From positions 12,231-76,230 of the forward strand of contig JAISXH010000011.1 of assembly GCA_031270825.1 (NCBI GenBank): a DNA stretch of 64,000 nucleotides. Reading direction: 5' to 3'. Position numbers and translations under genes: made by a program. Below, one piece after another: positions 14,812 to 56,759 of the stretch. The notes beneath the pieces were generated by a model. It saw only the letters and a list, made by a program, of their open reading frames with translations, was not told the origin of the DNA and did no database searches. The DNA comes from Bifidobacteriaceae bacterium (lineage in GTDB: Bacteria > Actinomycetota > Actinomycetes > Actinomycetales > WQXJ01). The stretch's first letter is position 1. The number at the start of each line of letters is the position of its first letter.

Positions 14812-15621
14812 CTACTTGCCGCGCAGGGCCCGGCGGTCCGGGCGGGCTTTGAACGGATCGACGCCCTTGGGGACCGGCAGTTTCATGCCGCCGATCGACT
14901 GGAGACGGCGGTTGACCTCGGCCAGGGCCGCTTTGTTCAAGGACGGACGCAGGCGCTTGAGCTTGCGTACCAGTTTCGGCAACGGCACCTGGCCCTCGCC
15001 CCGGCCGACGGTCAATTCGTGGATCTTGACGCCCGGCGCAACGCGGGCGACTCGCTGGCGCTCCTTCTTCAACAGGCCCTTGACCCGGCCGGTGGTGCCC
15101 TCGGCGATCAGGACTATGCCGGGCCGCCCGACCACTCTGAAGACCATGTCCATGGAGCGCGGATCGGCCGCGACCGGTTCCTGTTCAATGGTCCAGCCCC
15201 GCCGGATGGTGCCCAGGGCCGAGGCGGTGGCGCCAGGCTGGCCCTCGATTTGGGCGTAGGCGGACGATTCGGCCCGCCGGGCCAGCACCATTGTGCAGGC
15301 CAACAGCGCGACAGGGGCGGCCAGGAAGGCCATATAACCGGCGTGGCCCTTCCAGACGAACAGGCCGAAGAGGACGGCGACAGCTTCCGCGCCGACCATG
15401 ATCGCGACCAGCCAGAGCCAGATCAGCGGCTGTTGCTTGGCCACCATCTGGTAGACCTGCGCGATCTGCTTGTACCAGCGGGTCTTCTTGGTCTTGGCCG
15501 CCTTGGCCTCGGCTTTGGCGGCCTTCTTGGCCGCCCGTCCGGTTAGTTGCGGTCCAGCCCAGGGATCGTCGGAAGGGGATCTTGTAGCCACGACAGACCA
15601 TCTTAACGGCCGGCTGATCAA
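14812..15621 (-). CDS. DUF4191-family membrane protein
   Basis: RWYKQIAQVYQM, two TM segments, AYAQIEGQPGA. Same position as the DUF4191 gene next to glnA1 in other actinobacteria. Start uncertain. Confidence 0.7.
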   Translation of the reverse strand: MISRPLRWSVVATRSPSDDPWAGPQLTGRAAKKAAKAEAKAAKTKKTRWYKQIAQVYQMVAKQQPLIWLWLVAIMVGAEAVAVLFGLFVWKGHAGYMAFLAAPVALLACTMVLARRAESSAYAQIEGQPGATASALGTIRRGWTIEQEPVAADPRSMDMVFRVVGRPGIVLIAEGTTGRVKGLLKKERQRVARVAPGVKIHELTVGRGEGQVPLPKLVRKLKRLRPSLNKAALAEVNRRLQSIGGMKLPVPKGVDPFKARPDRRALRGK

Positions 15622-15631
15622 CTCCGGTCGG

Positions 15632-17035
15632 TCACAGGCTCAGCTCCGCCTCGAAGTTTCCGGTCTCAAGGCGGGTCTTGATGGCGGCCAGGAACTTGGC
15701 CGCGTCCGAGGGCGTGACCAAGCGCGAGTCGTAGGACAACGCCAAGTAGCTGGTCGAACGCACGGCTATGCCTTCGCCGACCACCACCGGCCGGCGCGTC
15801 ACGGCGCCGACTGACAGCACCGCCACCTGCGGGGGATCGATGGTCGGGAAGTCCAGCATCAGGTCCGGCCCGGCCGGAGCGGTCAGGGTGAAGGTCCCGG
15901 CCGCCAGGTCGGACGGAAGCAGCGCGCCGCCGGCCGCCCGGGCCTTGACCGCCGCGATGGCGCGCGCGAAGCCGACCAGACCCAGCGATCCCGCATCTGC
16001 GATGACGGGAACCAGCGGCCCTGATGGCGTGAACACCGTCAGGCCGAGGTTCTCTTGGGCGTAGTAGGTCACATCTCCGTCCGCAATGGCCGCGTTGAAG
16101 ACCGGATGGGCCTTCAGCGCCTCGACTGTGGCCCGCGCGAAGAACGGGTCGGCGGTGAGCTCGATTCCCTCGCGTTCCAAGAAGCGCTGGCTGCCGCGGG
16201 CGATCAGGCGCACGACTTCGGTGACGTCCACCTCGGCCACAGACGTTAGCTGGGCTGGCTGGTAGACCTCGTGCAGTTGGCGTTCGATCGCCCTGAGGCG
16301 AGGCAGCCGATCCTCCTCGCCGGGCACCGACGAAGAGGTCGGAATGGCAGGCGGTGGCGGCACGGCCGCGAGCACGTCTTCACGGCGAATCCGGCCCCCC
16401 ACGCCGCTGCCTCGGACGGTCGCCAGATCGACTCCGACTTCGTGTGCCAGCTTGCGCACCAGCGGGGTGATGTAGGGGGCCATGGCCTCCGATGCCGTCC
16501 CGGTCGCCGGTGGGGGCGGCACGGCGGGGGCCGCGTGGGCCGCGTGGGCCGCGTGGGCCGGTGCGTGGGCCGCCCGGGTTGGCGGGGCGGGGGCCGGATC
16601 GGCGGGCGCTGGGCCCGGGGGTGGCGCGACTGGGCGCGTCTGGACTGGGGATGTCGGCACTGGGAGTGTCGGCACTGGAACGGGCGCGGCGGGTGTCGGG
16701 GCTGGGGCCGGCGGGGCGGCATCGGGCGCCCCGGCCGGGGCGGCGGCGGCTGTGGCGGGCGGCGAGGTCGCCGGGTCGACTCCAGGCACCGCGCCGGGTT
16801 CTCCCAACGTGGCCAAAATGGCGCCCACCTCGACCGTCTGGTCTTCGGGGACCAGGATTTCAAGCAGGACACCGGCGAAGGGGGAGGGGATTTCGGTGTC
16901 GACCTTGTCGGTGGAGATCTCGACCAACGGCTCGTCGACCGCGACGGCGTCTCCGACCGCCTTGAGCCATCGGGTGACAGTTCCTTCTGTCACCGATTCG
17001 CCGAGGGCTGGCATTGGTACTGGTTGAGACATCAT
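15632..17035 (-). CDS. sucB: Dihydrolipoamide acyltransferase (E2)-like protein with degenerate catalytic motifs
   Basis: One lipoyl domain (EISTDKVDTEIPSP), Pro/Ala linker, E3-binding domain (ITPLVRKLAHEVGVDLATVRGSGVGGRIRREDV) and a catalytic-domain fold. The DHRxxDG motif reads DSRLVTP. Lies 21 nt downstream of lpdA. Confidence 0.85.
   Translation of the reverse strand: MMSQPVPMPALGESVTEGTVTRWLKAVGDAVAVDEPLVEISTDKVDTEIPSPFAGVLLEILVPEDQTVEVGAILATLGEPGAVPGVDPATSPPATAAAAPAGAPDAAPPAPAPTPAAPVPVPTLPVPTSPVQTRPVAPPPGPAPADPAPAPPTRAAHAPAHAAHAAHAAPAVPPPPATGTASEAMAPYITPLVRKLAHEVGVDLATVRGSGVGGRIRREDVLAAVPPPPAIPTSSSVPGEEDRLPRLRAIERQLHEVYQPAQLTSVAEVDVTEVVRLIARGSQRFLEREGIELTADPFFARATVEALKAHPVFNAAIADGDVTYYAQENLGLTVFTPSGPLVPVIADAGSLGLVGFARAIAAVKARAAGGALLPSDLAAGTFTLTAPAGPDLMLDFPTIDPPQVAVLSVGAVTRRPVVVGEGIAVRSTSYLALSYDSRLVTPSDAAKFLAAIKTRLETGNFEAELSL
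16530..16556 (-). repeat. 9-bp tandem repeat x3 (gccgcgtgg on + strand) in the E2 linker, encodes HAA repeats
   Basis: Read directly; a diverged 12-bp unit follows at 16557-16568. Confidence 0.85.
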
Positions 17036-17056: not shown

Positions 17057-18436
17057 TCAGGCGTGAGCGTGCAAGGGTTTGCCGGCCAGAGCCAGGAAGG
17101 CCTCGCCGATGGCCTCGTCTTGGGTGGGGTGAGCGTGGATCAACTCGGCCACGTCTTCGGGATAGGCCTCCCAGTTGACGATCAGCTGGGCCTCTCCGAC
17201 CAGTTCGCCGATCCGGGTGCCCACCATGTGCACGCCAAGCGTCGGGCCGCCGGCGAGGCGGACAAGCTTGACGAAACCCTGGGTTCCCAGGACCTGGCTC
17301 TTGCCGTTGCCGGCCAGGTTGTATTCGACGGTCTCGATGGCGTCTTCGCCGTGCGCCGACTTGGCGGCGGCCTCGGTCAGGCCGACGGAAGCGATTTCCG
17401 GTTCGCAGTAGGTGACGCGAGGGATCCCGGATTCGACGAGGGGGGCGGGGGTCATGCCGGCGATGCGTTCGGCCACGGCGATGCCCTGGGCGAAGCCGCG
17501 GTGGGCGAGTTGCAGGCCGGGCACAATGTCTCCCACGGCCCAAACCCGGTCGAGGTTGGTGCGTAGCTGTTCGTCGGTGGGGACGAAGCCCCGGTCCATG
17601 TCCAGGCCGATTCGCTCGAAGCCGACTCCGGCGGTGTTCGGTCCGCGGCCCACCGCCACCAGCAGCGCATCGCCGCTGAGGGCATCGCCGTTCTCAAGGC
17701 GGATGGTGACCTGGTGGTCGTCTTGGCTCACGTCTGCGACCTTGACTCCCAGGTTGAAGCCGATCCCGCGCCGCCTGAAGGAGCGTTCGATCAGCTTCGA
17801 GACGGTCAGGTCCTCGTTCGGGGCGAGATGGTCCAAGGCCTCCACGATCACCGGCTTGGCGCCGAAGGACGCCCACAGCGAGGCGAACTCAAGGCCGATC
17901 ACCCCGCCGCCAAGCACAATCGGGTTCTGCGGAATCCAGTCCAGGTTCAGCGCCTGGTCCGAGGTCATGACCCGGCCTTCGACGCTCACGCCTGGTAGGG
18001 AGCGAGCGTAAGAGCCGGTGCCGAGGACCAGATGGTGGCCTTCGACGACCTCGCCGCCCACAGAAATCCGGGTGTTCGACTGGACCTCGCCGCGCCCCTG
18101 GATGAGATGGACCCCGCGGCCGGAGACCAGGCCCTGCAGACCTTTGTAGAGCCGGTCGATCACGCCCTGCTTGAAGGCGTTGACTGCGCCCATGTCGATG
18201 CCGTTGAGCTGCGAGTGGACGCCATACTTAGCCGACTCGCGGATCTGGTCTGCGATTTCAGCGGAGTGGAGCATCGCCTTGGTCGGGATGCAGCCTCGGT
18301 GCAGGCAGGTGCCGCCGACTTTGTCGGCTTCGATCAAGGCAACGTTCAAACCCAACTGGGCGGCGCGCAGGGCGGCGGCATAGCCGCCACTTCCCGCGCC
18401 TAGGATGACGACGTCGTACACGGCTGATTCGGCCAC
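17057..18436 (-). CDS. lpdA: Dihydrolipoyl dehydrogenase (E3)
   Basis: VILGAGSGGY FAD motif and redox-active disulfide GGTCLHRGCIPTK. GTG start. Confidence 0.93.
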   Translation of the reverse strand: MAESAVYDVVILGAGSGGYAAALRAAQLGLNVALIEADKVGGTCLHRGCIPTKAMLHSAEIADQIRESAKYGVHSQLNGIDMGAVNAFKQGVIDRLYKGLQGLVSGRGVHLIQGRGEVQSNTRISVGGEVVEGHHLVLGTGSYARSLPGVSVEGRVMTSDQALNLDWIPQNPIVLGGGVIGLEFASLWASFGAKPVIVEALDHLAPNEDLTVSKLIERSFRRRGIGFNLGVKVADVSQDDHQVTIRLENGDALSGDALLVAVGRGPNTAGVGFERIGLDMDRGFVPTDEQLRTNLDRVWAVGDIVPGLQLAHRGFAQGIAVAERIAGMTPAPLVESGIPRVTYCEPEIASVGLTEAAAKSAHGEDAIETVEYNLAGNGKSQVLGTQGFVKLVRLAGGPTLGVHMVGTRIGELVGEAQLIVNWEAYPEDVAELIHAHPTQDEAIGEAFLALAGKPLHAHA

Positions 18437-18657
18437 TGAGATGGCACCTTTCTTCGTTATGTCTGCTGCTGGTGGTGTGGGTGTGCTGGTTGTTGTTCGG
18501 TTGTCGGCGCGTTCGCTCCCGCCGGCGGGACTGAGGCGGGGTGTGTCTCGCCGCCGGGCAGGGCCGAAGTCCTATATCAATTTTGACACGAGTTCGCCGA
18601 CGCCTTGCCCCTGCGGGTGTGCTTTCCCTCACAGTCGCCTTGCTAGGCTCTGAGGCT

Positions 18658-19056
18658 GTGAGTTGGCGCCCATTTGGCAGACGCAAGCGCGACGGGGCGG
18701 ACGGGGCCGGGGCCGCGCCCGCTGATTCGAAGCGAGAGACCCTGGAGCACCTGCAGGCGTTCGTCGCCTCCCGAGTCGGGGTGGAGGCCTATATCGAGCC
18801 CCCGAACTCGCAGATTCAGACCACCTTGTTGCTAGTGGCCACGACCGGAGAGTGGACCCGGCGCAAGGTGCCGGATCCGGCCACGGCCCGCACGGTGGCG
18901 ATTTCGCTCGGCATCCCGGTCTACGACGTCAACTTCACCGGCTACCCGCAGCGGATGCGGGACTGGAACGCGGCCCAGCGGGCCGCTCAGCGCCAGGGGC
19001 GCCAGGGCAGCCAAACCGGCCGGGGCCAAGCGGGAGGCGGCGCTGCCGATTCCTAG
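18658..19056 (+). CDS. Hypothetical protein (conserved-looking, ~132 aa)
   Basis: ORF 18541..19056 trimmed to GTG 18658 (VSWRPFGRRKR...). A TAGGCT -10-like hexamer ends 8 nt upstream, so the mRNA may be leaderless. No recognisable family. Confidence 0.45.
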   Translation: MSWRPFGRRKRDGADGAGAAPADSKRETLEHLQAFVASRVGVEAYIEPPNSQIQTTLLLVATTGEWTRRKVPDPATARTVAISLGIPVYDVNFTGYPQRMRDWNAAQRAAQRQGRQGSQTGRGQAGGGAADS

Positions 19057-19061
19057 CCTGG

Positions 19062-20915
19062 TCAGTCCAGGCGGTCGGCCGGCACTTGGTATACCAGCCC
19101 CAGAGGTGTTCTGATGGTGGTCTCGCCGGTTTCCACATCGCGGTGGTACTCCCAACCGAAGCGGGTCTTCAGTTCGTGGCAGCCTTTCGACAGATGTTGA
19201 AGGTTGGATCCTTTGGTCTGCTGGTCGGCCGGTTGGCCCGGGTTGTAGGGGTCGAGGTGGTCGACCTCGCAGCCTTGACGGCAACGTCCGCAGGTAGGAT
19301 TCGCGCACTTGGATTGCCGGACAGCGAGCAGGCGTCGCACCCTGAGGCTGGGTTGATACGAATTGTTCGATGCCGTCTCCATAGGCCAGTCCTCAGGCTC
19401 GCCCCAAGGATTGACGCACGCCTCCGCGAGGCCAATTCCCGGCGGTCCGGCGCCGGAACCGTCTTGGCTCCGCTCGCTCCCGTCACCCGCAGCGCGCCCG
19501 GCACTCATGGCGCCCCTGTCGCCACGGTCACCCCCACCGGTCGCCGGCAGGCTGTTCTCACCGTCCCCGGCCGAACCGCGTCCCGAACTGCCGTCTTCGC
19601 GATCCGGCGGCCCGGCGCCGCGGGTTTCTTCGTAGCGACCAGCGCCTTCTTGCCGTGAGTCGCCGCCCGAACCTCCGCCGCCCGAACCTCCGCCGTCCGA
19701 ACCTCCGCCGCCTGGGCCACCCGGCGGCCTGGCGCGGGCGCCGAACACCATCCCGGCCGAAAACGCCTTGTCCGACACCCATACCGGGCGTCCGGACGCC
19801 GGGTCGACGAAGAGAGCGCGCCAGGTCGCATCCACGGCTATCGCCCGTCCGACTTCCGCCGGGATGGGTCCGGCGCCCAGGATCAGGCCGGGCTTGTCGT
19901 CCAGTCCCAGGAGCGTGGTCGCGTCCATTCGCACCAGCAGCCCGCACTTGGGGAAAGGCGGCCCGGGCCGCCGTGCTCCCCGTTCCGAGACCTCGGAACC
20001 GGAGCCGGCGCTGTCGGGGCCGGCCACACCGTCATGCGGTGCTGGGCCGCCGTCATAGGGTGTGTGGTCGAGCAAGGCAATGAGCGCGTCATAGCGCCGT
20101 TGGCCTGCAGTCCGCAGGTCCTTGGGATGGCCCCTCTGGGATGCCGTTTCGACCAGATCGGTGATGCGCGCTAGTTCGTGGGCGGCGCCGAAGACGGTCA
20201 GCGTGGCCATGGCGGCCGAACGTGATCGGTAATGGATGCTGCGTTCCTCATAGGCCACCTGGTGGGCGTGTGAGCATCCGGCCGGATCTTGATCGGCCGC
20301 CAGTTTCTCGCAACCGTCTTGGATTCGCGGCCGGGTCTGGCCCAGCTTGGCCAACCGGATTCCGTGGCTCAAGACCAGCCGGCGGCTTTCCGGGTCCTCG
20401 AGCCGCCCGGCCGCCCGCAGGATCACGTCCCCAGTTGAAACCCCCAGAACGCCGTCCATCATCGCCTCAGCGAGAATTGGTTCATTCAATCCGGCTGCGC
20501 CGACCCGGGCCAGAGCGTGAGCCGAATACGAGGTCTTTCCGCAAGCCAAGGCCGCCTCGGCGATCAAAGACCGAGCCGGACTGACTGATGGATCATCGGC
20601 CTGCTCCTCGGCCTGCGCGCAGGCGGCGGCCAGCGTCAAACCGGCCTGGCACTGCGACCATTTCGACTGGGCGTCCCACAGTCCTACCAGGCGGATCTGG
20701 TCACGTTGAGTGACCTCATCCATGTCCGCCACTCGACAGAGCATGGCAGCGGTTCGCGGCCCTGGCCCCAGGGATGCGGCCAAGTCCAGTAGTTCGTCGG
20801 CCTTCATCCCGTCCCACCAACAAGAACACCAGCCCAGCTGGTGATCCTCGCACAGGCTCGCCGGAGCGTCCTCGCCGCTGCCAGCGGCTGGTCGGAGAAC
20901 CTCGGTGACTGCCAT
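19062..20915 (-). CDS. DUF222/HNH endonuclease (13E12-type), likely selfish gene
   Basis: C-terminal HNH region CEVDHLDPYNPG...NLQHLSKGCHELKTRFGW. Start trimmed to ATG 20915, because the upstream W/G-rich 59 aa only translate the repeat array. Gly-rich insert before the HNH domain. Confidence 0.8.
   Translation of the reverse strand: MAVTEVLRPAAGSGEDAPASLCEDHQLGWCSCWWDGMKADELLDLAASLGPGPRTAAMLCRVADMDEVTQRDQIRLVGLWDAQSKWSQCQAGLTLAAACAQAEEQADDPSVSPARSLIAEAALACGKTSYSAHALARVGAAGLNEPILAEAMMDGVLGVSTGDVILRAAGRLEDPESRRLVLSHGIRLAKLGQTRPRIQDGCEKLAADQDPAGCSHAHQVAYEERSIHYRSRSAAMATLTVFGAAHELARITDLVETASQRGHPKDLRTAGQRRYDALIALLDHTPYDGGPAPHDGVAGPDSAGSGSEVSERGARRPGPPFPKCGLLVRMDATTLLGLDDKPGLILGAGPIPAEVGRAIAVDATWRALFVDPASGRPVWVSDKAFSAGMVFGARARPPGGPGGGGSDGGGSGGGGSGGDSRQEGAGRYEETRGAGPPDREDGSSGRGSAGDGENSLPATGGGDRGDRGAMSAGRAAGDGSERSQDGSGAGPPGIGLAEACVNPWGEPEDWPMETASNNSYQPSLRVRRLLAVRQSKCANPTCGRCRQGCEVDHLDPYNPGQPADQQTKGSNLQHLSKGCHELKTRFGWEYHRDVETGETTIRTPLGLVYQVPADRLD
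19661..19705 (-). repeat. 15-bp tandem repeat x3 (cgccgcccgaacctc on + strand) inside the HNH gene, encodes a Gly/Ser-rich insert
   Basis: Units at 19661-19675, 19676-19690 and 19691-19705, with a degenerate fourth unit to 19720. Confidence 0.85.
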
Positions 20916-20998
20916 GACAACCACCCTAGAACCGAGCTCTGACACTGAGATGACCAGCCAAAACGCTCCTCCAAGCGAGTGTTCGCGCCACCGCCCTT

Positions 20999-21119
20999 CG
21001 ACCCAGCGACCCAGCCACCCGGCGACCCAGCCACCCAGCCACCCGGCGACCCAGCGACCCAGCCACCCAGCGACCCAGCCACCCGGCCACACAGCGACCC
21101 AGCCACCCAGCGACCCCGG
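20999..21119. repeat. 8-bp (c[g/c]acccag) / 24-bp periodic repeat array, ~5 x 24 bp
   Basis: Read directly: cgacccagcgacccagccacccgg and four variants. Lies between the HNH gene start and the pepA stop, and is open in several frames on both strands. Confidence 0.9.
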
Positions 21120-22624: not shown

Positions 22625-23728
22625 ATGCTAATTCAGATCCAGCCGGTAACCTGGGAGATTGTGTATCGCCTGATCTTCAACTTGTTTTTCCGGGGTATGG
22701 ATCCGGAGCGAGCGCACAAGCTGGCGTTGGTGATGATCACGGCGATGGGGGAGTTCCCGCCGGCCCGTGGGCTGGTCGGCCTGCTGTTCGGAGCCAAGCG
22801 CCGGCCCGGCCCCACGGGCCCGGACGGCAACAGGCTGTTCGGGCGCGACTTGACTGGGCCGCTCGGGCTCGCGGCCGGCTTCGACAAGGACGCCAAAGCG
22901 GTCAAAGGCCTGACCGCGCTGGGCTTCAGCTTTGTCGAGGTCGGCACGGTCACGCGCTTCCCGCAGCCGGGCAATCAGCGCCCGCGGCTGTGGCGGTTGC
23001 TGGAACAGCGGGCCTTGCGGAACGCCATGGGCTTCAACAACGCCGGCTCCACAGCCGTGGCGCGAACGCTGCGCGAATTGCGGCGTTCGCCCGGCGGACG
23101 CGATTACGTGGTCGGCGTCAACATCGGCAAGTCGAAGGTGACCGCGGTGCCCGAGGCGGCGGCGGACTATTTCGTCTCGGCGCGGCGTCTGGCCCGCTAC
23201 GCCGACTACCTGGTGGTCAACGTCTCCTCGCCGAACACCCCTGGGCTGCGCGACTTGCAGGCGGTCAGCCAGCTGAGGCCCGTCTTGTTGGCCGCGCGGG
23301 CGGGCGCCGCCCAGTCGCTGGCCAAAGACGGGCGCCCGGGGAACTTGCCCCTGCTGGTCAAGATCGCCCCGGACTTGTCGGATGAGGACATCGACGCCAT
23401 CGCCGACCTGGTCGAGGAGCTGGATCTGGACGGCGTGGTGGCGGTCAACACCACGGTGGCCCATGACCTGGGCGCGGGCGGGTTGTCGGGTCCGCCGCTG
23501 CGTGAACGCGGCCTGGAAGTGGTGCGCCGCCTGCGCCAGCGCCTCGGCCGCGAACGGACCATCATCGGGGCGGGCGGAGTCACTTGCGGCCTCGACGTGG
23601 AGGCCTACCAGGCCGCCGGGGCCAATGTGGTCCAGGCCTACACGGCCTTCATCTATGAGGGCCCCGCTTGGCCCGGGCGCGTTCAGCGCCGAGCCGCCCG
23701 GTCGATGGCCGGGGCCGGCCGGAGTTGA
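22625..23728 (+). CDS. pyrD: Dihydroorotate dehydrogenase (quinone), class 2
   Basis: Motifs GFNNAG, VNIGKSK, LVVNVSSPNTPGLRDLQ. Alternative start GTG 22661 (VYRLIFNLFF) is possible. Confidence 0.9.
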   Translation: MLIQIQPVTWEIVYRLIFNLFFRGMDPERAHKLALVMITAMGEFPPARGLVGLLFGAKRRPGPTGPDGNRLFGRDLTGPLGLAAGFDKDAKAVKGLTALGFSFVEVGTVTRFPQPGNQRPRLWRLLEQRALRNAMGFNNAGSTAVARTLRELRRSPGGRDYVVGVNIGKSKVTAVPEAAADYFVSARRLARYADYLVVNVSSPNTPGLRDLQAVSQLRPVLLAARAGAAQSLAKDGRPGNLPLLVKIAPDLSDEDIDAIADLVEELDLDGVVAVNTTVAHDLGAGGLSGPPLRERGLEVVRRLRQRLGRERTIIGAGGVTCGLDVEAYQAAGANVVQAYTAFIYEGPAWPGRVQRRAARSMAGAGRS

Positions 23729-27750: not shown

Positions 27751-28584
27751 GTGATTGCTGTGGCGACGGTTGTCTCTTCTTTGCCTGCGCGAGTAGCCCC
27801 CGCATCGGTACTGGACAAGGCCCGGCAAACGCTCCGGTTGGCGGAGGCGAAGACCGGAGCGCGGCCGGTTGGCGCCAATCCGGAGTTCCGCCCGCAGGTT
27901 TCCAGAGCGGTTTCCGGAGCGGTCTCCGGAGCGGTCACCGGAGCGGTCTCCGGAGCGGTCTCCGGGGCCATCTCCACAGCGGTCCCCAACCGGACGATGC
28001 CGTCTGGTCGCCCTGGGCCCGGCGGCCTCAGTGGCGCCGACCCGGCTATCCAGAAGGCGCCAGCTGACAGCCTGCGGACCTACTGGCGGCAACTCAGCCC
28101 GGCAGAACTGGCCGAATTGGCCGGGCCGCATTTCTTGCCGGGGACGGTGGTCCAGGTCAGTGGTTCGTTGGCGTCCTTTTGGGCGGTAGCCGCGACCGGC
28201 ATGGGGGAAGAGGACTGGGCGGGGATCGCCGGCTTGCCGGAGGCGGGCCTGCTGGCGGCGGCTGAGGCCGGTCTTGTTCTCAGCCGCACGGTGGTGGTTC
28301 CCAACCTGGGCCAGCAGCCGCTTCGAGTTTTGGCCGCCCTGGTGGACGCCTACGGCTTGGTGATGGCCGGCGGATTGGAACTGGGCGCGGGCGACCGCCG
28401 CCGGATTGAAGCACGGCTGCGCTTCACCGGCGGAAGGTTGGTCACCACCGGAGAATGGGGTGGCGCCAAGTTGATTGTCAGGGTTAAAGCGACGCATAAT
28501 CTGCCTTTGGGGGAAGGCCAAATCGCCGCCGGCCAGCCGCGCCTTGATTTTGAAATGGTCTGCAAGGGCGGCTTCGAGTCCTGA
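27751..28584 (+). CDS. imuA: ImuA'-like mutasome accessory protein
   Basis: First gene of the imuA'-imuB-dnaE2 arrangement, ~275 aa, with a RecA-fold-like core lacking a Walker A motif. Alternative start GTG 27760 has better SD spacing. Confidence 0.65.
   Translation: MIAVATVVSSLPARVAPASVLDKARQTLRLAEAKTGARPVGANPEFRPQVSRAVSGAVSGAVTGAVSGAVSGAISTAVPNRTMPSGRPGPGGLSGADPAIQKAPADSLRTYWRQLSPAELAELAGPHFLPGTVVQVSGSLASFWAVAATGMGEEDWAGIAGLPEAGLLAAAEAGLVLSRTVVVPNLGQQPLRVLAALVDAYGLVMAGGLELGAGDRRRIEARLRFTGGRLVTTGEWGGAKLIVRVKATHNLPLGEGQIAAGQPRLDFEMVCKGGFES
27904..27975 (+). repeat. 12-bp tandem repeat x6 (ggagcggtctcc), in frame in imuA', encodes (SGAV)n
   Basis: Units read directly at 27904, 27916, 27928, 27940, 27952 and 27964. 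Confidence 0.9.
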
Positions 28585-28586
28585 TC

Positions 28587-30185
28587 ATGAGCAGTGATGC
28601 TGTGGCGGCTATGGCGGCTGAGGCGCGGGTGGCTCGCCGGTTGGCGGCTATCTGGATTCCCGATTGGCCGGTGGTGGCGGCGATCGAGGCCGGGGCGGCG
28701 CCAGCGGAGCAGCCGATCATGGTGGCGGACGCCCATCGCGTCAAAGCGGTTAGCGCGGCGGCCAGGGCGGCCGGGGTCCGGCGCGGCATGAAACGGCGCA
28801 CAGCCGCCGCGCTCTGTCCCCAGGCCCAGATAGTGCCGGCTGACCAGGTGCGTGACAGTCGTGGCTTTGAAAGATTGGCCATGGTGGTGCACACCCTGGC
28901 GCCAGGGGTTGAATTGTTGCGGCCGGGCTTGATGATCTGCCCGGCCGCGGGCGCCAGCCGCTACTACGGCGGCGACGAGACCTTCGCCGAACACCTTCTG
29001 ACCGAGGTGGCGGCTCAGGTCGGCACCGAAGCCTGGGTCGGCGTGGCGGACGGCTTATTGGCCGCGATTCTGGCGGCCCGCGATGGCCGGGTGGTGGCGA
29101 GGGGAGAATCGCGCCGCTACCTGGCGCCCAGGCCGCTGAGCGACCTGGGGGTGGCTTTGGGCGGCACCGGGGCCGGCGAAAATCTGGGCGCGCTGATGGA
29201 TTTGTTGACAAGGTTGGGCGTCACAACCTTGGGCGGTCTGGCCCAGCTGCCGACCCGCAACGTGACCGAACGGTTCGGGGCGGTGGGGGTTTGGGCGCAG
29301 CGACTGGCCAGAGCCGAAGACGTGCTGACGGCCTTGGAACACAAGCTGCCCCGGCGGTTCGTGGCCGTCATAGAAGCCGATCCGCCCATGACACGGGTCG
29401 GCCAAGCCATCGTGGCGGCCCGGCAACTGGCAGCGGACCTCCACACCCAGTTGACCCAGCACGGCCGAACCTATGATCGGCTGCGTGTCAGCGCCATCAC
29501 CGAAACCGGCGAAGAACTGGAACGGACCTGGCGCCTGGATGGAGTCGACGCCGCCGGCGTCCAAGATCGGGTCCGCTGGCAACTCGAAGGCTGGCTGACC
29601 GGACGCAGCGGCCTGCTGCCGACAGGCGCGCTGATTCGGCTCAGCTTGGAGGCTGAGGAAGTGCGCCCGGCCGGGGCGGGCTCAGCCCGGTTGTGGGGGA
29701 CCAACGGCTACGCCGCGGCTAGGGCGGTGCGCGGCGCCGAACGGATTCACACCATGCTGGGAGGGCGTGGCGTCTATCAACCCGTGCTACAGGGTGGCCG
29801 CGAGCCCAGAGGCCGTGTCCGGCTGGTCGAATGGGGTGAGGACACCATTGCGCTCCGGCCGATCGAGCGGCCGTGGCCGGGCGCCGTGCCGGCGCCGTCC
29901 CCAAGTTTGATGCCGCCGAAACCGCTGCCGGTGGAATTGTCCGATTCGAACGGCCAGACCATCGCAGTCGGCTCCGCCCTGGAGTTGAGCGCCGAACCGG
30001 CCAGTTTGGACAAAGCCGCCGTCACCGGGTGGGCGGGTCCCTGGCCGGTGGTGGAGCAGTGGTGGGGGCTGGAGTCGAAACGACGTGTCTACCTTCAGGT
30101 CCAGGTGGAACGCGGCGGCAAAGAGCAGACCACCTTGTTGGCTTGCGAGTCCGGCCAATGGCGTTTGGAGGGCGTTTATGACTGA
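28587..30185 (+). CDS. imuB: ImuB, Y-family polymerase-like mutasome subunit
   Basis: N-terminus IWIPDWPVVAA is typical of ImuB. 532 aa, located between imuA' and dnaE2. Confidence 0.85.
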   Translation: MSSDAVAAMAAEARVARRLAAIWIPDWPVVAAIEAGAAPAEQPIMVADAHRVKAVSAAARAAGVRRGMKRRTAAALCPQAQIVPADQVRDSRGFERLAMVVHTLAPGVELLRPGLMICPAAGASRYYGGDETFAEHLLTEVAAQVGTEAWVGVADGLLAAILAARDGRVVARGESRRYLAPRPLSDLGVALGGTGAGENLGALMDLLTRLGVTTLGGLAQLPTRNVTERFGAVGVWAQRLARAEDVLTALEHKLPRRFVAVIEADPPMTRVGQAIVAARQLAADLHTQLTQHGRTYDRLRVSAITETGEELERTWRLDGVDAAGVQDRVRWQLEGWLTGRSGLLPTGALIRLSLEAEEVRPAGAGSARLWGTNGYAAARAVRGAERIHTMLGGRGVYQPVLQGGREPRGRVRLVEWGEDTIALRPIERPWPGAVPAPSPSLMPPKPLPVELSDSNGQTIAVGSALELSAEPASLDKAAVTGWAGPWPVVEQWWGLESKRRVYLQVQVERGGKEQTTLLACESGQWRLEGVYD

Positions 30186-33100
30186 TTACGCCGAACTCCA
30201 CGCCCACAGCGCTTTCAGTTTTCTGGACGGCTGCAGCCAGCCGGCGGACCTGGCCTACCAGGCGGCGAGGCTAGGGCTCAGCGCCATGGCCATAACCGAT
30301 CACGACGGGCTTTACGGCGTGGTGCAGTTCGCCGAGGCGGCTCGCGAGGTGGGCCTGCCGACCGTTTTCGGGGCTGAATTGACTTTGGACGGCGGCCCCG
30401 AGACGCCGGGCGCCAGCGATCCTCCTGGCACTCATCTGCTGGTGTTGGCGCGCGGGCCGGAAGGATATAAGCGCCTCAGCCGGTCGATCGCGCAAGCCTA
30501 TCTGGCCGTCCGCCATAAAGGGCCGCCGCGCTATGACCTGGACGCTTTGGCCGCCGCCAGCGGCGGCCAGTGGCTGATCTTGACAGGATGTCGCAAGGGC
30601 GCGGTTCGACGGGCGCTAGCTCAAGGTGGCGCCAAAACGGAACTGGACCAGTTAGTCCGCCTGTTCGGCCGCGACAACGTGGCGGTCGAGATCACCGATT
30701 CGGACAGCCCCGAGGATCCAGCCGTGATCGCGGCCCTGATGGAATTGGCCGCAGACGCCCGCCTGGCGCTGGTGGCCACCGGCAACGTCCATTACGCCCA
30801 GACCAGTCAGTTCGCCATGGCCGCCGCCATGGCGGCGATCCGCGGGCGTCGCAGCCTGGAGGAAATGGACGGATATCTGCCCGCCGGTCCCACGGCGGCG
30901 TTGCGTTCGGCAGGGCAGATGATCTCGCGCCTGGCCCGTCACGGCCCGGCGGCGGCCGCCGCCGTCGCCACCGCCGCCGAACTGGCCGCCGAATGCGCCT
31001 TCGATCTCAAGCTGGTCGCGCCCAAACTGCCGCCGGCCTATGTTCCCAAGGGCCACAACGAGGACAGCTGGTTGGAGCAGTTGACTTGGCGCGGCGCCGA
31101 ACGGCGCTACGGCCCGCGCCGCCCTGACAGCGCCAAGGCGTACCAGACCCTGGAGCGCGAGCTCACAGTCATCAAGGAGCTTGGATTCGCGGGCTACTTC
31201 CTGATCATGTATGAGATCGTCGAGTTCTGCGAAGAGCAGGGGATTCTCTGCCAGGGCAGGGGTTCGGCCGCCAACTCGGCCGTTTGCTACGCGCTCGGCA
31301 TCACCGCTGTCGACGCGGTCCGTTACGGCCTGCTGTTCGAACGCTTCTTGGCGCCGGAACGCGAGGGTTACCCCGACATCGACCTGGACATCGAGTCGGG
31401 CCGCCGCGAAGAGGTGATCCAGCACGTCTACCAGCGTTATGGCCGCGAACGGGCGGCGTTGGTCGGCGCGGTGATCTCTTATCGGCCGAAGCTGGCTTTG
31501 CGGGACGCGGCCCGCGCCCTTGGCCACGGCACGGGCCAGCAGGACGCCTGGTCCAAGCAGGTCGAACGCTGGGGCCATCTACATAGGGGCAAGGTCCGCT
31601 ATGTCCCCTGGGGACGCGGCGGCGCCGAGCCGGTCGACGCCGATGACGACCTGTCCGCCATCCCCGCCGATGTCCTGGCCCTGGCGGAATCGTTCATGCA
31701 TCTGCCGCGGCACCTGGGCATTCACCCCGGCGGCATGGTTTTGGCGGACCAGCCCGTGATCGAGGTCTGCCCCGTCCAGTGGGGGCGCATGGAGGACCGT
31801 TCGGTGTTGCAGTGGGACAAGGACGATGCCGCCAGCGCCGGCTTGGTCAAATTCGACCTGCTCGGCCTGGGCATGTTGGGCGCCATCCGGCTGGCGTTCG
31901 AGGAGATCGAGCGCAGCGAGGGTCGGCGTTGGCGAATGCACACCATCCCGCCGGAATGCCCGGAGGTCTATGACTTGTTGTGCGCGGCGGACACGGTGGG
32001 CGTTTTCCAGGTCGAGTCCAGAGCCCAGATCGCCACTTTGCCTCGCCTCAGGCCGCGGCGGTTTTACGACATCGTGGTGGAGGTGGCTTTGATCCGTCCG
32101 GGGCCAATCCAGGGCGGCTCGGTCCACCCCTACATCGAGCGGGTTCGGGGACGCGAACCCGTCACCTATGACCACGAGTTGGTGCGTCCGGCCTTGGAGC
32201 GAACCTTGGGTGTGCCGCTGTTCCAAGAGCAACTCATGCAAATGGCCATTTCAGCGGCGGGATTCAGCGCCGGTCAGGCCGACCAGTTGAGAAGGGCCAT
32301 GGGCTCGAAACGGTCGACCGAGCGGATGGAAGCGCTCAAAGAAGCTCTCCTGGCGGGGATGCGAGAACGTGGCGTGCCCGCCGCCGCGCGGTCCAAGATC
32401 TACGACCAATTGAAGGCCTTCTCGGATTTCGGTTTCCCCGAATCGCATTCGTTTTCCTTCGCCCTGATCGTCTACGTGTCCGCCTGGTTGAAGGTGTTCC
32501 ATCCGGCGGCCTTCTACGCCGCCATCTTGGCCTCGCAGCCGATGGGCTTCTATTCGCCGCAGTCGCTGGTGGCGGACGCCCGTCGCCACGGTTTGGCCGT
32601 GCGTGGGCCAGACATCCAGCGCTCAGCCGCGCAGGCTCGGGTCGAACGCGCCGGGCCAGGCGACCGGCCCTATTCGAAACTGCTCAAAGGCGACCCGGAA
32701 CTGGGCGTCAGACTGGGCTTGGCGGCGGTCCGCGGGATCGGCGCGAAGAAAGCGGAGGCCATCTGGACCGAACGCGACCAGGGCGGCCCCTTCCAATCGC
32801 TGACTGATTTGGCCCATCGCTGTGACCTCGCGCCGCGTCAAATGGAGGCCTTGGCCACGGCTGGGGCGCTGAGCGGTTTGGAGCCGGATCGCCGCAAGGC
32901 GCTGTGGGCGGCCGGGGCGACCGGCGCGGCCGCCCAATTGCCGGGCACCACTCCGGGCCTGCGGGCGCCGGCCTTGCCGGGCATGTCGGCTGAGGAGTTG
33001 GCCATAGCCGACATGTGGGCCACCGGCGTCACCCTGAGCGAATATCCAACCGTCCATGTCCGCAAAGAATTGACCGCCGCCGAGGTCGTTCCCAATAACC

Positions 33101-33396
33101 AGGTCGCGGACCACCCGAACGGCGAATGGATCAAAGTGGCCGGCGTGGTGACGCACCGTCAGCGTCCCGGCACCGCCGGGGGAGTGACCTTCCTCAATCT
33201 GGAGGACGAGACCGGCCAAGTCAACATAATCTGCACCGCCGACGTCTGGAACCGGTTCCGAAGAATCGGCCGCACGGCATCGGCCATGGTGGTGACGGGG
33301 AGATTGGAAAACCGCGACGGGACGGTCGGCGTCAAAGCCGGCCACTTGCATCCGCTTTATCTCAAGGTGCCGACCAAATCCCGCGATTTCCACTGA
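30178..33396 (+). CDS. dnaE2: Error-prone DNA polymerase III alpha homologue DnaE2 (ImuC)
   Basis: MTDYAELHAHSAFSFLDG PHP domain, ~1070 aa. Start trimmed to ATG 30178, overlapping the imuB stop by 8 nt. Confidence 0.93.
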   Translation: MTDYAELHAHSAFSFLDGCSQPADLAYQAARLGLSAMAITDHDGLYGVVQFAEAAREVGLPTVFGAELTLDGGPETPGASDPPGTHLLVLARGPEGYKRLSRSIAQAYLAVRHKGPPRYDLDALAAASGGQWLILTGCRKGAVRRALAQGGAKTELDQLVRLFGRDNVAVEITDSDSPEDPAVIAALMELAADARLALVATGNVHYAQTSQFAMAAAMAAIRGRRSLEEMDGYLPAGPTAALRSAGQMISRLARHGPAAAAAVATAAELAAECAFDLKLVAPKLPPAYVPKGHNEDSWLEQLTWRGAERRYGPRRPDSAKAYQTLERELTVIKELGFAGYFLIMYEIVEFCEEQGILCQGRGSAANSAVCYALGITAVDAVRYGLLFERFLAPEREGYPDIDLDIESGRREEVIQHVYQRYGRERAALVGAVISYRPKLALRDAARALGHGTGQQDAWSKQVERWGHLHRGKVRYVPWGRGGAEPVDADDDLSAIPADVLALAESFMHLPRHLGIHPGGMVLADQPVIEVCPVQWGRMEDRSVLQWDKDDAASAGLVKFDLLGLGMLGAIRLAFEEIERSEGRRWRMHTIPPECPEVYDLLCAADTVGVFQVESRAQIATLPRLRPRRFYDIVVEVALIRPGPIQGGSVHPYIERVRGREPVTYDHELVRPALERTLGVPLFQEQLMQMAISAAGFSAGQADQLRRAMGSKRSTERMEALKEALLAGMRERGVPAAARSKIYDQLKAFSDFGFPESHSFSFALIVYVSAWLKVFHPAAFYAAILASQPMGFYSPQSLVADARRHGLAVRGPDIQRSAAQARVERAGPGDRPYSKLLKGDPELGVRLGLAAVRGIGAKKAEAIWTERDQGGPFQSLTDLAHRCDLAPRQMEALATAGALSGLEPDRRKALWAAGATGAAAQLPGTTPGLRAPALPGMSAEELAIADMWATGVTLSEYPTVHVRKELTAAEVVPNNQVADHPNGEWIKVAGVVTHRQRPGTAGGVTFLNLEDETGQVNIICTADVWNRFRRIGRTASAMVVTGRLENRDGTVGVKAGHLHPLYLKVPTKSRDFH

Positions 33397-33432: not shown

Positions 33433-34194
33433 GTGAGTCCGAACAGCGCGGAACCCCTAACGCGGCTGCAGGCGATGGTCGACGCCTCGAGCCGGATCGT
33501 CTTCTTCGGCGGCGCCGGCGTGTCGACCGAATCGGGGATTCCCGATTTTCGATCGGCCGAGGGCCTCTACACCGCCGGTGGCCCGATCCCGCCCGAAGTG
33601 ATCCTCTCGCGCAGCTTCTTTGAATCCCATCCCAGCGAGTTCTTCGACTTCCACCGCCGCAGCGTCCTGCACCCAGACGCCCAACCGAACGCCGCCCATC
33701 GCAAACTGGCCGAACTGGAACGAGCCGGACGCCTGTATGCGGTGGTGACGCAGAACATCGACGGCCTGCACCAAGCCGCCGGCTCGGTCAATGTGATCGA
33801 GTTGCACGGCTCGGCGCATCGCAACCACTGCCGCGATTGCGGCCGCCAATATTCCCTGGCCACCGTCTACGACGCCGCCGGGATCCCGCGCTGCGACTGC
33901 GGCGGCGTGATCGCCCCGGCGGTGGTGCTGTACGGGGACCCGCTCGACCACCATGTGATCTCCGCCGCGGTCGAGGCGATCGCGGCAGCCGACATGCTGA
34001 TCATCGGAGGCACCTCTTTGGTGGTCTACCCCGCCGCCGGCCTGGTGGACTACTTCGACGGCGACCGCTTGGTCGTCATCAACAAGGACGCCTCAGCGGG
34101 CTCGGGTCGCCTGGGCGGCCGGGCGCTGATCATCAACCAGGCGATCGGCGGCGTGCTGGGCCGAATCGAGGCCAAGCCGGTGGCTGTTGACTGA
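33433..34194 (+). CDS. cobB: NAD-dependent protein deacylase (sirtuin, CobB type)
   Basis: GAGVSTESGIPDFRS, TQNIDGLH, and Zn ribbon CRDCG...CDCGG. Confidence 0.9.
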   Translation: MSPNSAEPLTRLQAMVDASSRIVFFGGAGVSTESGIPDFRSAEGLYTAGGPIPPEVILSRSFFESHPSEFFDFHRRSVLHPDAQPNAAHRKLAELERAGRLYAVVTQNIDGLHQAAGSVNVIELHGSAHRNHCRDCGRQYSLATVYDAAGIPRCDCGGVIAPAVVLYGDPLDHHVISAAVEAIAAADMLIIGGTSLVVYPAAGLVDYFDGDRLVVINKDASAGSGRLGGRALIINQAIGGVLGRIEAKPVAVD

Positions 34195-53098: not shown

Positions 53099-53743
53099 AT
53101 GGTGGCGGCAAGAAGACGCGCCGCGCGGCCCGCGATCTTGGCCGGCCTGGCGCTGACGGCTTCGGCGCTGGCCGGCTGCGCTGGTGACGCTGGCGAGGCG
53201 CCCGCTCCGACCACCTTCGAAGGCGTTCTGGCGGAGGCGACAGAACGTGGCTATTGGGCGCTGGACAGACTCGAGGACGGCGAGGTCACCTTTGACGAGC
53301 TGGAGTGGGCGCACGACCAATGGGAGGGCTGCGTCAATCAGATCGGTTACAACGTGATCGCCCTTGATTCATGGCGCAGCCCCGTGGACGGAACCCTGGG
53401 CGGCCTCTGGTATGACTGGAACGGTCAGGAGCCGGCGCCGGATCAAGACGACCCGGTGCTGGGGGAGAAGATTGAGGCCTGCTTCGCCGACTTCGACTTG
53501 GAGCTACTGTCTTTGGCCTACTCCGTGGGCCACGAACAGGTGATGGATGAGCCGCTGCGGCAATACACGCTTGAGTGCTTGGGGGAGGCCGATTTGAAGC
53601 CAGATCCGAGCGACCAGTCCGTGCCGGACCTGATGGCGGACCCGGGCGTGGGTGAGGGCGCCTTCTACCTTGTTGAGGCTTGCGTCACCAAGGGCGTTGA
53701 GGAGCTCTATCCCGAAGTCCTACAAGTGTCAGTGGGCTACTGA
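53099..53743 (+). CDS. Acidic lipoprotein, unknown function
   Basis: Signal peptide plus lipobox LALTASALAGCAGD. Four further Cys. No recognisable family. Confidence 0.6.
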   Translation: MVAARRRAARPAILAGLALTASALAGCAGDAGEAPAPTTFEGVLAEATERGYWALDRLEDGEVTFDELEWAHDQWEGCVNQIGYNVIALDSWRSPVDGTLGGLWYDWNGQEPAPDQDDPVLGEKIEACFADFDLELLSLAYSVGHEQVMDEPLRQYTLECLGEADLKPDPSDQSVPDLMADPGVGEGAFYLVEACVTKGVEELYPEVLQVSVGY

Positions 53744-53745
53744 GA

Positions 53746-56542: not shown

Positions 56543-56759
56543 GCCAACCCGGGCGGGCGAGCTCGGCAAGACTAAGCCCGCCGTGGATTCGCGTTGACCA
56601 CGAGCCCCCCGGCTCACTGGTGGGAGCCCAATGGGGTCGTGGTGGGGTCTTGGCGGGGTCTTGGCCCTATGGGCGCCGAAACATCGGAGGTGCCGGGGGC
56701 TCCAGAGTTCGGGATCCGACCGACGCCGACTCTAGGGCGGGGGAATTGTTCATGCACCC

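Follow-up and report, generated by a model that had tools for sequence, protein, structure and literature searches.

The main finding of this study is that an E2 homologue lacking the active-site His, encoded in the 64-kb stretch of DNA that we analysed as a whole (hereafter the window), is held under purifying selection, with a dN/dS similar to that of the adjacent lpdA. Textbook E2s are the core and the acyltransferase of the PDH and ODH complexes in one, and eukaryotic E3BP is to our knowledge the sole accepted noncatalytic E2 paralogue. We consider that the window protein is probably a trimer that carries a lipoyl arm and docks E3, with no catalytic activity of its own or a weak one at most. 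This lipoyl-carrier/E3-tethering scaffold was one of two readings offered in the original prediction, and it fits all the sequence evidence: the active-site lesions, the kept lipoyl domain, peripheral-subunit (E3/E1) binding domain (PSBD), trimer-type C terminus and Lpd, and the purifying selection. We infer that the protein is lipoylated and binds Lpd, and we approach the identity of its partner in the same way below.

The gene (15632-17035, minus strand) is an intact ORF for 467 aa with a GGAG ribosome-binding site 6 nt 5' of the ATG. As had been read from the sequence, it encodes a lipoyl domain, a PSBD and a full catalytic-domain fold; the first two are joined by a Pro/Ala linker. There are Pfam matches to Biotin_lipoyl (PF00364, residues 6-77), E3_binding (PF02817, residues 187-222) and 2-oxoacid_dh (PF00198, residues 248-458). 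The lipoyl domain (residues 6-77; 16805-17020, minus strand; E = 1.2e-22; pLDDT ~90) displays the N-terminal DK(A/V) turn of E2s, with the lipoyl-lysine, Lys44, in ISTDKVDTE (codon 16904-16906, minus strand). The flexible linker (residues 80-185; 16481-16798, minus strand; pLDDT <50) contains 34 Pro and 34 Ala in 106 residues. In the PSBD (residues 187-222; 16370-16477, minus strand; E = 2.2e-14), R194, G209, G211 and G213-R217 are invariant in His-less and canonical sequences alike, as expected of an E2. The catalytic-domain fold (residues 248-467; 15635-16294, minus strand; E = 3.5e-41) has an AF2 pLDDT of 85-95 and a Foldseek TM of 0.81 to both DlaT (9y6t) and CgE2p (6zzi), and the model confirms that a CAT-like fold is retained. 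The protein also has the C-terminal insertion of three residues, bearing a conserved Phe, that is typical of actinobacterial trimeric E2p: Phe461 (15653-15655, minus strand), which lies within RLETGNFEAELSL in an invariant column, is the equivalent of CgE2p Phe669, and this "phenylalanine-containing insertion" holds E2p trimeric in actinobacteria (PMC10415282; bioRxiv 10.1101/2020.07.24.212647). Against the NCBIfam equivalog model TIGR02927 (SucB_Actino), the protein scores 418.1 bits, just below the cut-off of 423.45. Several homologues in the databases (P0004, P0013, P0016 and others) are shorter, and a distinct lipoyl-less architecture was considered for them and rejected: a lipoyl domain is encoded in frame upstream in loci L002 and L003, and the Pro/Ala-rich linker leads gene callers to begin at Met184, with loss of the lipoyl domain (P0004, P0013, P0016).

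The active centre is dismantled. To set the register, we aligned the protein with HMMER against the solved DlaT of M. tuberculosis (9y7v) and AceF of C. glutamicum (6zzl), which pairs YDSRLVTPSDAA with YDHRLIDGADAG and TFTLTAPAGPDLMLDFP with TFTITNIGSQGALFDTP; because both motif segments are paired in this way, the register originally proposed is right, and these alignments reveal no His/Asp pair near DSRLVTP. This segment (15710-15730, minus strand) replaces the canonical DHRxxDG, with Ser437 for His, Thr441 for Asp and Pro442 for Gly, and both alignment and codon (15725-15727, CGA on the plus strand and TCG on the minus strand) agree with what had been predicted. The protein is thus without the active-site His and the Asp/Asn partner four residues on that mark an E2. 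The substrate/oxyanion loop, also predicted to be lost, is rebuilt as AGTFTLTAPAGPDLMLDF (residues 379-396; 15848-15901, minus strand) in place of the canonical GGTFTxTNTGSxGALFDT; its TNxGS reads TAPAGP, Thr385 (equivalent to E. coli E2o Thr323) is retained, and residues 388-392 have a pLDDT <50. A third lesion, beyond these two motif changes, is Ile278 (16202-16204, minus strand), which, when mapped on 6zzl_A (with 365 added to the chain index), occupies the position of CgE2p Arg480 and AvE2p Arg450. Arg480 of CgE2p binds the CoA 3'-phosphate (bioRxiv 10.1101/2020.07.24.212647), and an E2 would have this residue. The column holds Arg in 70/70 canonical sequences, whereas each His-less one has Ile, Val or Thr there. 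Likewise, the motif columns read H, D-G and T-N-T-G-S in every one of the 70 canonical E2s retrieved from actinobacteria, and the differences in the window protein are therefore far beyond chance. However, E. coli E2o variants at His375 retain 0.5-60% activity (Trp ~50%, Gly ~20%, Ala 2%, Asn 0.5%) and Asp379Ala entails a loss of only 11-fold (PMC5986005), so the missing His alone is no proof of inactivity, and full loss of acyl-transfer activity in the His-less E2 is an inference.

The original prediction had used the lost His to liken the protein to E3BP (protein X, PDHX). As a classification this stands, since a missing transferase His is the criterion that separates E3BP from E2 (PMC10156792) and the window protein has an E2-like topology without it; as a sign of inactivity it is weakened by the E. 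coli variants. The likeness extends to the lipoyl domain, the PSBD and the acyltransferase-like core. It does not reflect common descent with the eukaryotic protein, as the match to E3BP in the PDB (6h60) has an E value of 1.6e-19 versus 1e-119 for DlaT, and the resemblance is functional only, having arisen independently from a bacterial E2 lineage. E3BP also differs in its core, a 60-mer in contrast to the trimeric or hexameric core of actinobacteria. With these differences in mind, the window protein is presumed to be a noncatalytic E3 tether like E3BP, a protein for which the reason for inactivity is itself still debated (PMC10156792).

The locus places the protein among actinobacterial E2s. 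The typical order is pepA-lpd-E2-(lipB-lipA)-DUF4191-glnA1-glnE-glnA2, and judging by gene order the window E2 is the syntenic orthologue of DlaT/AceF/SucB. Actinobacterial E2p/DlaT/AceF proteins (Rv2215; C. glutamicum AceF) are its best matches in sequence and fold, and they share its synteny, domain order and C-terminal Phe insertion; compared with CgE2p, however, His645, Asp649 and Arg480 are replaced and the TN-TGS loop is rebuilt, and there is one lipoyl domain where actinobacterial E2p has two to three. Immediately upstream, at a distance of 21 nt, is lpdA (17057-18436, minus strand; TIGR01350 score 449.6, above the cut-off of 408.8), encoding dihydrolipoyl dehydrogenase (E3), in which the motifs C44-x4-C49 and HAHPTQDE (HAHPTxxE) are intact. 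The lpdA product is apparently intact, and the two genes are probably cotranscribed. Directly downstream is a gene for a DUF4191 membrane protein (14812-15621, minus strand; PF13829, E = 4.7e-73). The 10-nt gap originally reported between it and the E2 gene holds if translation begins at TTG 15621, but becomes ~40 nt with GTG 15591, which is likely the true start and is also where the gene was called to begin in a relative; neither gap leaves space for lipB-lipA. That these genes are absent from the locus, as originally stated, is correct, and 25 canonical loci (including those of Rhodoluna, Planktophila and Buchananella) do have lipB and lipA between E2 and DUF4191. As evidence for a pseudo-E2, however, their absence was rejected, since Actinomycetaceae with a canonical E2—Schaalia, Actinomyces and Pauljensenia—also lack lipB-lipA between E2 and DUF4191. 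The order lpd-E2'-DUF4191 is shared by His-less relatives wherever context is available, and a small divergent ORF 5' of lpdA (18541-19056, plus strand), detected by tblastn, is conserved with 70-82% identity inside the His-less clade and 44-48% at the same position in Nakamurella loci. A superoxide dismutase gene in the conserved neighbourhood suggests oxygen exposure. E. coli tblastn probes for AceE, SucA (through which odhA/kgd was sought), AhpC, AhpF, LipA, LipB and LplA gave no match in any His-less locus, that is, in the 64-kb window, which was also annotated with Pfam on self-called ORFs, and, for each of 12 relatives, in the surrounding ~20 kb. Neither the window nor the relatives' loci contained a second E2, with only one lpd-E2 locus seen.

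The altered protein is not confined to a single genome. When we checked close relatives, the same lesions were present in 8/8 GTDB species-level MAG loci and in 12 close homologues, with 70/70 other actinobacterial loci being canonical; in all, at least 8 species-level MAGs from termite guts carry them, as do ~30 metagenome clusters. The hosts are termite-gut Actinomycetales with MAGs labelled "Bifidobacteriaceae bacterium" or "Micrococcales bacterium", and, going by isolate names, the variant is seen in MAGs of several termite hosts; at least one further set of MAGs (WRIK01) has it too. Of the 150 database representatives nearest to the protein, 13 are His-less, which suggests that pseudo-E2s may be a recurrent, overlooked class in Actinobacteria. 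Farther relatives without His have Ser with the DG kept (P0132-134, P0136 and P0155), Ser with the Gly lost (P0138), Pro (P0135 and P0137) or Arg (P0129), and the motif columns vary across the wider His-less clade (S/P/R, DG/DS/TA/TP/SG and TN/TS/TA). Because Ser, Pro or Arg is found there in more distant relatives, the His position does not seem to have been recruited for new chemistry. In the closest sub-clade (9 sequences), the replaced residues are 89-100% conserved, which could reflect a new constraint instead of mere scaffolding.

The catalytic domain has a dN/dS of ~0.12 (range 0.05-0.25) and Lpd one of 0.08-0.29, at dS values of 0.4-2, with synonymous sites near saturation across the His-less clade. 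Divergence from canonical E2 is restricted to the catalytic domain, which is 44% identical to canonical sequences, a figure that stands at 67% when these are compared with one another; the lipoyl domain (~71% versus 72% among canonical actinobacterial domains), the PSBD (74% versus 77%) and Lpd (62% versus 65%) have diverged at ordinary rates. The active site is relaxed: for positions that canonical E2s keep invariant, the active-site segments have an entropy of 0.80 bits in the His-less clade versus 0.02 in canonical E2, and the rest of the catalytic domain 0.46 versus 0.05 bits.

We propose the following history. The clade ancestor would have surrendered the acyl-CoA-forming centre through replacement of His by Ser, Pro or Arg and of the CoA 3'-phosphate-binding Arg by Ile or Val, and the Asp-Gly pair and the Thr-Asn-x-Gly-Ser loop would have eroded afterwards. 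The rest—a single lipoyl domain, the linker, the E3/E1-binding domain, a CAT-like trimer fold with its C-terminal Phe insertion, and the adjacent lpdA—would have remained under selection. The scaffold would dock Lpd via the PSBD, and its lipoyl arm would be oxidised or reduced by Lpd with NAD(H), acyl transfer to CoA being no longer done by the scaffold protein itself. As to the partner, we tentatively rank first an OdhA/Kgd-type E1o-E2o fusion, a possible candidate rather than a favoured one. OdhA/Kgd would supply its own succinyltransferase domain and take lipoyl groups in trans from E2p, and OdhA is known to require a lipoyl-Lys in trans from E2p (PMC10415282). If the partner is of this kind, loss of PDH would lift selection from the active site of E2p and from nothing else in it. 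Absence of PDH, together with an incomplete TCA cycle, has been reported for low-GC endosymbiont termite Bifidobacteriaceae genera, a report that does not cover the high-GC MAGs considered here (PMC11707648). The precedent is the PDH/ODH supercomplex of C. glutamicum and mycobacteria, in which OdhA reportedly needs what the window locus offers, namely a lipoyl domain, a PSBD and Lpd (PMC10415282, and Hoffelder 2010 as cited there). It differs in that E2p there is also catalytically active for PDH, and odhA/kgd was not found in the window or in the ~20 kb around the 12 relatives. Moreover, OdhA is absent from Bifidobacteriales according to Bruch et al., which disfavours this partner if the lineage truly belongs there.

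The main alternative to an OdhA partner for such a scaffold is an E1-independent redox relay running from NADH through Lpd and the lipoyl arm to a thiol peroxidase, which we place second among the partners and regard as rather unlikely in its own right. Lpd with NADH would reduce the lipoyl arm, which would pass electrons to a thioredoxin-like protein and a peroxiredoxin, making up an NADH peroxidase, independent of acyl transfer, for an oxygen-exposed gut bacterium, in keeping with the superoxide dismutase gene nearby. The M. tuberculosis Lpd-DlaT-AhpD-AhpC system offers a parallel, in that Lpd and a lipoylated E2 act together there without acyl transfer to CoA: DlaT is the core of a peroxynitrite reductase/peroxidase, and E3 and NADH can reduce its lipoate directly, driving AhpD/AhpC, in work that does not extend to this high-GC lineage (PMC12995895). 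However, this relay has been shown in mycobacteria only, M. tuberculosis DlaT stays a functional acetyltransferase, a search of the window and the relatives' loci gave no ahpC, and strong selection on the whole catalytic-domain fold is not obviously explained. A third and improbable partner for the scaffold would be a second, catalytic E2 elsewhere in the genome, in a pairing like that of E3BP.

It is less probable still than the relay, and in our view doubtful, that the protein, with its unusual active site, still works as a slower acyltransferase within PDH or ODH. The tolerance of E. coli E2o to substitutions of His375, the purifying selection on the catalytic domain and the retention of Thr385, Asp436 and Arg438—three of the five active-site residues probed in PMC5986005—are all compatible with a working enzyme. 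Yet four separate elements are altered (the His, the Asp-Gly pair, the CoA-phosphate Arg and the TN-TGS loop), the residue at the His site differs across the clade, the faster divergence affects the catalytic domain only, and the score falls below the equivalog cut-off. The conservation of the replaced residues in the closest sub-clade might instead point to a neofunctionalised enzyme with a rebuilt pocket (TAPAGPDLMLDFP and DSRLxTPSDAA) and a new substrate, but the same positions are variable in the wider His-less clade, no new invariant polar triad was seen and the model has low confidence in the rebuilt loop, making this very improbable. Finally, the other reading in the original prediction, that of a relic of a lost 2-oxoacid dehydrogenase complex decaying toward a pseudogene, has in its favour the lost catalytic residues, the single lipoyl domain, the locus without lipB-lipA and the published Bifidobacteriaceae without PDH, but it can hardly be maintained when the ORF is intact in every clade member examined, catalytic-domain dN/dS equals that of lpdA in a clade with near-saturated synonymous sites, conservation of the lipoyl domain and PSBD matches that in functional E2s, and the variant persists clade-wide, in several termite hosts and in WRIK01.

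A literature search for earlier reports of bacterial E2s without catalytic residues gave only work on eukaryotic E3BP, and, as a tentative claim, the window protein might be the first case of a bacterial E3BP counterpart, in which an E2 has long survived with no role but to carry a lipoyl arm and dock E3. If the scaffold serves OdhA, it would be a natural experiment in which an actinobacterial OdhA-type 2-oxoglutarate dehydrogenase runs on a dead E2p, with the carrier role split from the enzyme role, and it could be used to test directly whether OdhA/Kgd needs just lipoyl groups from E2p. If there is no E1 in these genomes, Lpd and the lipoyl scaffold would form a free-standing NADH-driven redox module without any 2-oxoacid dehydrogenase, which could reveal an Lpd-lipoyl antioxidant relay beyond mycobacteria. 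As the only visible E2 of its lineage, one that has lost its catalytic residues and is nonetheless selected alongside Lpd, it would in either case be a simple system in which to study the roles of the lipoyl arm, PSBD and trimer core. There are also consequences for annotation. The lipoyl domain is omitted in many gene calls, and reconstructions from termite-gut MAGs may falsely infer PDH or ODH activity owing to the JGI label of such proteins, "dihydrolipoamide succinyltransferase"; NCBI names the relatives only "2-oxo acid dehydrogenase subunit E2".

The E2 gene adjoining lpdA encodes an intact protein of 467 aa (15632..17035, minus strand; hereafter E2'), starts 21 nt after the lpdA stop codon and has a GGAG ribosome-binding site 6 nt ahead of its ATG. 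The lipoyl domain, peripheral-subunit-binding domain (PSBD) and acyltransferase domain of the original prediction are all present: Pfam assigns the lipoyl domain to residues 6-77, with Lys44 as the lipoyl lysine, the PSBD to 187-222, and the 2-oxoacid dehydrogenase acyltransferase domain to 248-458. The first two are joined by a linker of 106 residues (80-185) with 34 Pro and 34 Ala. Because this linker misleads gene callers, deposited E2' proteins often lack the lipoyl domain: the public gene calls P0004, P0013, P0016, P0027, P0121 and others start at an internal Met past it. The DNA of two homologous loci, L002 and L003, encodes the lipoyl domain in frame upstream of the called start, and the P0004 sequence equals that of the window protein from Met184 on (100% identity). 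The upstream lpdA (17057..18436, minus strand) encodes a dihydrolipoyl dehydrogenase (Lpd) that scores above the TIGR01350 cut-off and preserves the HAHPTxxE motif as well as the Cys44-Cys49 redox disulfide; an M17 aminopeptidase gene and pyrD lie on that side. Downstream of E2' come DUF4191, glnA1, panD, an AI-2E transporter gene, glnE and glnA2. The 10-nt gap described between E2 and DUF4191 (14812-15621, minus strand) stands only with the mechanical TTG start at 15621, which is probably wrong; the start residue of the DUF4191 relative in L003 corresponds to the window GTG at 15591, and the gap would then be ~40 nt.

By descent, E2' is an actinobacterial orthologue of DlaT/AceF/SucB, but it fails the catalytic criteria of the family, and its score against the NCBIfam equivalog for actinobacterial SucB/DlaT (418.1 bits) falls slightly under the cut-off (423.45). 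HMMER alignments to the solved structures of M. tuberculosis DlaT and C. glutamicum AceF (CgE2p) bear out the replacement of the catalytic motif and oxyanion loop, YDSRLVTPSDAA being aligned to canonical YDHRLIDGADAG and TFTLTAPAGPDLMLDFP to canonical TFTITNIGSQGALFDTP. The Ser codon had been correctly placed at 15725-15727, where plus-strand CGA reads TCG on the minus strand. A third loss concerns Arg480 of CgE2p, which binds the CoA 3'-phosphate (Bruch et al., bioRxiv 10.1101/2020.07.24.212647) and is Arg in 70/70 canonical actinobacterial E2s fetched: E2' has Ile278 at this position, and all members of the His-less clade have Ile, Val or Thr (6zzl_A alignment, chain index + 365 giving the CgE2p residue number; offset checked on His645). 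E2' keeps Asp436, Arg438 and Thr385, which correspond to Asp374, Arg376 and Thr323 tested in E. coli E2o, as well as Phe461, the equivalent of CgE2p Phe669 in the actinobacterial C-terminal insertion. An AlphaFold model superposes on DlaT and CgE2p at TM 0.81, with pLDDT of 85-95 in the catalytic domain except for the rebuilt loop 388-392.

These changes are not peculiar to one protein. All twelve closest database homologues (64-89% identity) share the DSR variant, with YDSRL[IV]TPSDAA and T[AS]P[AP]GP in 12/12. With one genome scanned per GTDB species, it turned up in eight MAGs, each titled 'Bifidobacteriaceae bacterium' (isolates Gsp477_bin170, Gsp477_bin37, Ct408_bin70, Pcl387_bin30, Pcl387_bin33, Pcl387_bin9, Cd354_bin95 and Md513_bin16) and named in the style of the termite-gut MAGs of Mies et al. 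on which Kästle Silva et al. drew (PMC11707648). The other loci among the matches listed—including Schaalia, Actinomyces, Varibaculum, Micrococcales, Nanopelagicales and most Nakamurella loci—are canonical (70/70). The order lpd-E2'-DUF4191 is common to the loci with context (L001, L003, L084, L086, L091), and only two clusters among 1.84 billion representative proteins separate from canonical E2s (452 and 298 bits vs <=252 bits for the rest). Remoter relatives without the His emerged when only the catalytic domain served as query. The His site is Ser in P0132, P0133, P0134, P0136 and P0155 (the last encoded by the 'Micrococcales bacterium' MAG GCA_009782755.1), where Asp-Gly and Thr-Asn are still there, and in P0138, which retains Asp and Thr-Asn and has lost Gly (DS); it is Pro in P0135 and P0137 and Arg in P0129. 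A position occupied by Ser, Pro or Arg has therefore not been recruited for a new catalytic role. The simplest history has the His and the CoA-binding Arg disappear once, in an ancestor, after which the remaining active-site elements eroded step by step. One MAG, Pcl387_bin33, has two His-less E2 copies in differing contexts, L002 (JAITJZ010000062.1) and L009 (JAITJZ010000013.1), with 85% and 78% identity to the window protein, respectively; they could reflect a paralogue or a mixed bin. The gene after the L002 copy encodes a 670-aa Oxidored_FMN/Pyr_redox_2 protein, not DUF4191.

Divergence of the His-less E2s from canonical E2s is confined to the catalytic domain, where identity is 44% between the two groups vs 67% among canonical E2s; the corresponding values are 71% and 72% for the lipoyl domain, 74% and 77% for the PSBD, and 62% and 65% for Lpd. 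At sites invariant in canonical E2s, the His-less clade as a whole has an entropy of 0.80 bits in the active-site segments (0.02 bits in canonical E2s) and of 0.46 bits in the rest of the catalytic domain (0.05 bits); it is thus chiefly the catalytic apparatus that was freed from constraint, the fold having stayed constrained. Because four altered elements combine with this domain-specific acceleration, loss of acyltransferase function is likely, although not certain. A missing His alone is no proof of inactivity, since E. coli E2o tolerates changes of His375 and Asp379: catalytic efficiency is lowered only 54-fold in His375Ala, about 2-fold in His375Trp, about 5-fold in His375Gly, 178-fold in His375Asn and 11-fold in Asp379Ala (PMC5986005). 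E2' might thus still be a slow acyltransferase, but the number of altered elements and the restriction of the acceleration to the catalytic domain make this improbable. The decaying 2-oxoacid dehydrogenase system of the original prediction is rejected because pairwise Nei-Gojobori dN/dS is low at dS 0.4-2, at 0.05-0.25 (median about 0.12) for the E2' catalytic domain and 0.02-0.2 for its lipoyl domain, with 0.08-0.29 for Lpd, 0.11-0.31 for DUF4191 and 0.04-0.09 for GlnA1.

We lean towards E2' being a non-catalytic protein that carries lipoyl groups and docks E3, because its lipoylatable swinging arm, E3/E1-binding domain and trimer-forming core are still canonical, an intact Lpd is tightly linked, and the parts forming acyl-CoA have been dismantled. 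The predicted scaffold resembling eukaryotic E3-binding protein (E3BP, protein X), of which a missing His is the accepted marker (PMC10156792), fits the retained domains and lost catalytic elements; the parallel, however, is one of presumed function, E2' having arisen independently. No bacterial E2 without catalytic residues came up in our literature searches. The evidence from sequence is solid, and researchers of 2-oxoacid dehydrogenase complexes should find it of genuine interest. By analogy, two documented actinobacterial systems offer precedents for E2p as a lipoyl carrier. First, OdhA/Kgd has its own succinyltransferase domain fused to E1o and needs lipoyl-lysine in trans from E2p, as stated in the part of PMC10415282 citing Hoffelder 2010; loss of PDH from the lineage would free E2p from the need for its active site and nothing else, which fits what is seen. 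Second, M. tuberculosis Lpd and NADH directly reduce DlaT lipoate, which then drives AhpD and AhpC (PMC12995895). No aceE-, sucA/kgd-, ahpC-, lipA-, lipB- or lplA-like sequence was found in the 64-kb window or the ~20-kb loci of twelve relatives, and OdhA is reported to be absent from Bifidobacteriales (Bruch et al., bioRxiv 10.1101/2020.07.24.212647). The window lineage, at 68% GC, is not among the low-GC endosymbiont genera of PMC11707648. Since, in addition, relatives' contigs carry fumC (L084, 21102-21278), hydrogenase-maturation genes hypA/hypB/hypC (L086, 1-1216) and superoxide dismutase, its physiology is not to be assumed. The window pyrD (22625-23728, plus strand) encodes a 70-residue N-terminal extension ahead of the DHO_dh domain, as is usual in quinone-linked class 2 enzymes; together with fumC and hypA/hypB/hypC, this hints that the lineage, unlike Bifidobacterium, does not live by fermentation alone. 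About 17 kb away from E2' the window also has a gene for a Sir2-family deacylase (33433-34194, plus strand); some bacterial sirtuins remove lipoyl groups.

The absence of lipB-lipA, originally offered as support, is real in the His-less loci, none of which has these genes between E2 and DUF4191 when probed with E. coli LipA and LipB, but it makes a weak argument. While 25 canonical loci have lipB-lipA there (e.g., Rhodoluna L019, Planktophila L011, Buchananella L059), Schaalia, Actinomyces and Pauljensenia, whose E2 is canonical, carry a kinase-like gene in their place, so the absence is not specific to His-less E2s.

Pseudo-E2s may recur in Actinobacteria, judging from the nearest 50%-identity representative clusters (best 150), 13 of which lack the His, including a Nakamurella-type His to Gln variant and a family without a complete lipoyl domain. 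The Gln variant, FDQRFVDG together with TLTVSNAGSPGALIDTP, is found in representative P0244 and at the orthologous pepA-lpd-E2 locus of Nakamurella sp. MAG cluster2_bin.113 (L032:9625-11538), apparently a second, independent His-less E2; the other Nakamurella loci are canonical. P0342, P0357, P0360 and P0367 form the separate E2-like family, with a RHRHSPRVRRLA-type PSBD and with Pro, Gln or Arg replacing the catalytic His.

Elsewhere in the window, four consecutive ORFs (214, 366, 507 and 238 aa; 53099-57476, plus strand) match no Pfam family at E <= 1e-5. Between pepA and a small ORF upstream of lpdA lies a 676-aa ORF (19062-21092, minus strand) that matches DUF222 weakly and has repeated GWVAGWLG(R/G)W units at its N-terminus; no DUF222 gene occurs at this position in the relatives' locus gene tables (L001 has MerR and MFS genes), and the ORF may be a mobile insertion. 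Finally, 27751-33396 (plus strand) looks like an ImuA'-ImuB-DnaE2-type mutagenesis cassette, comprising a 277-aa ORF without a Pfam match, an IMS-family protein and a 1103-aa DNA polymerase III alpha paralogue.
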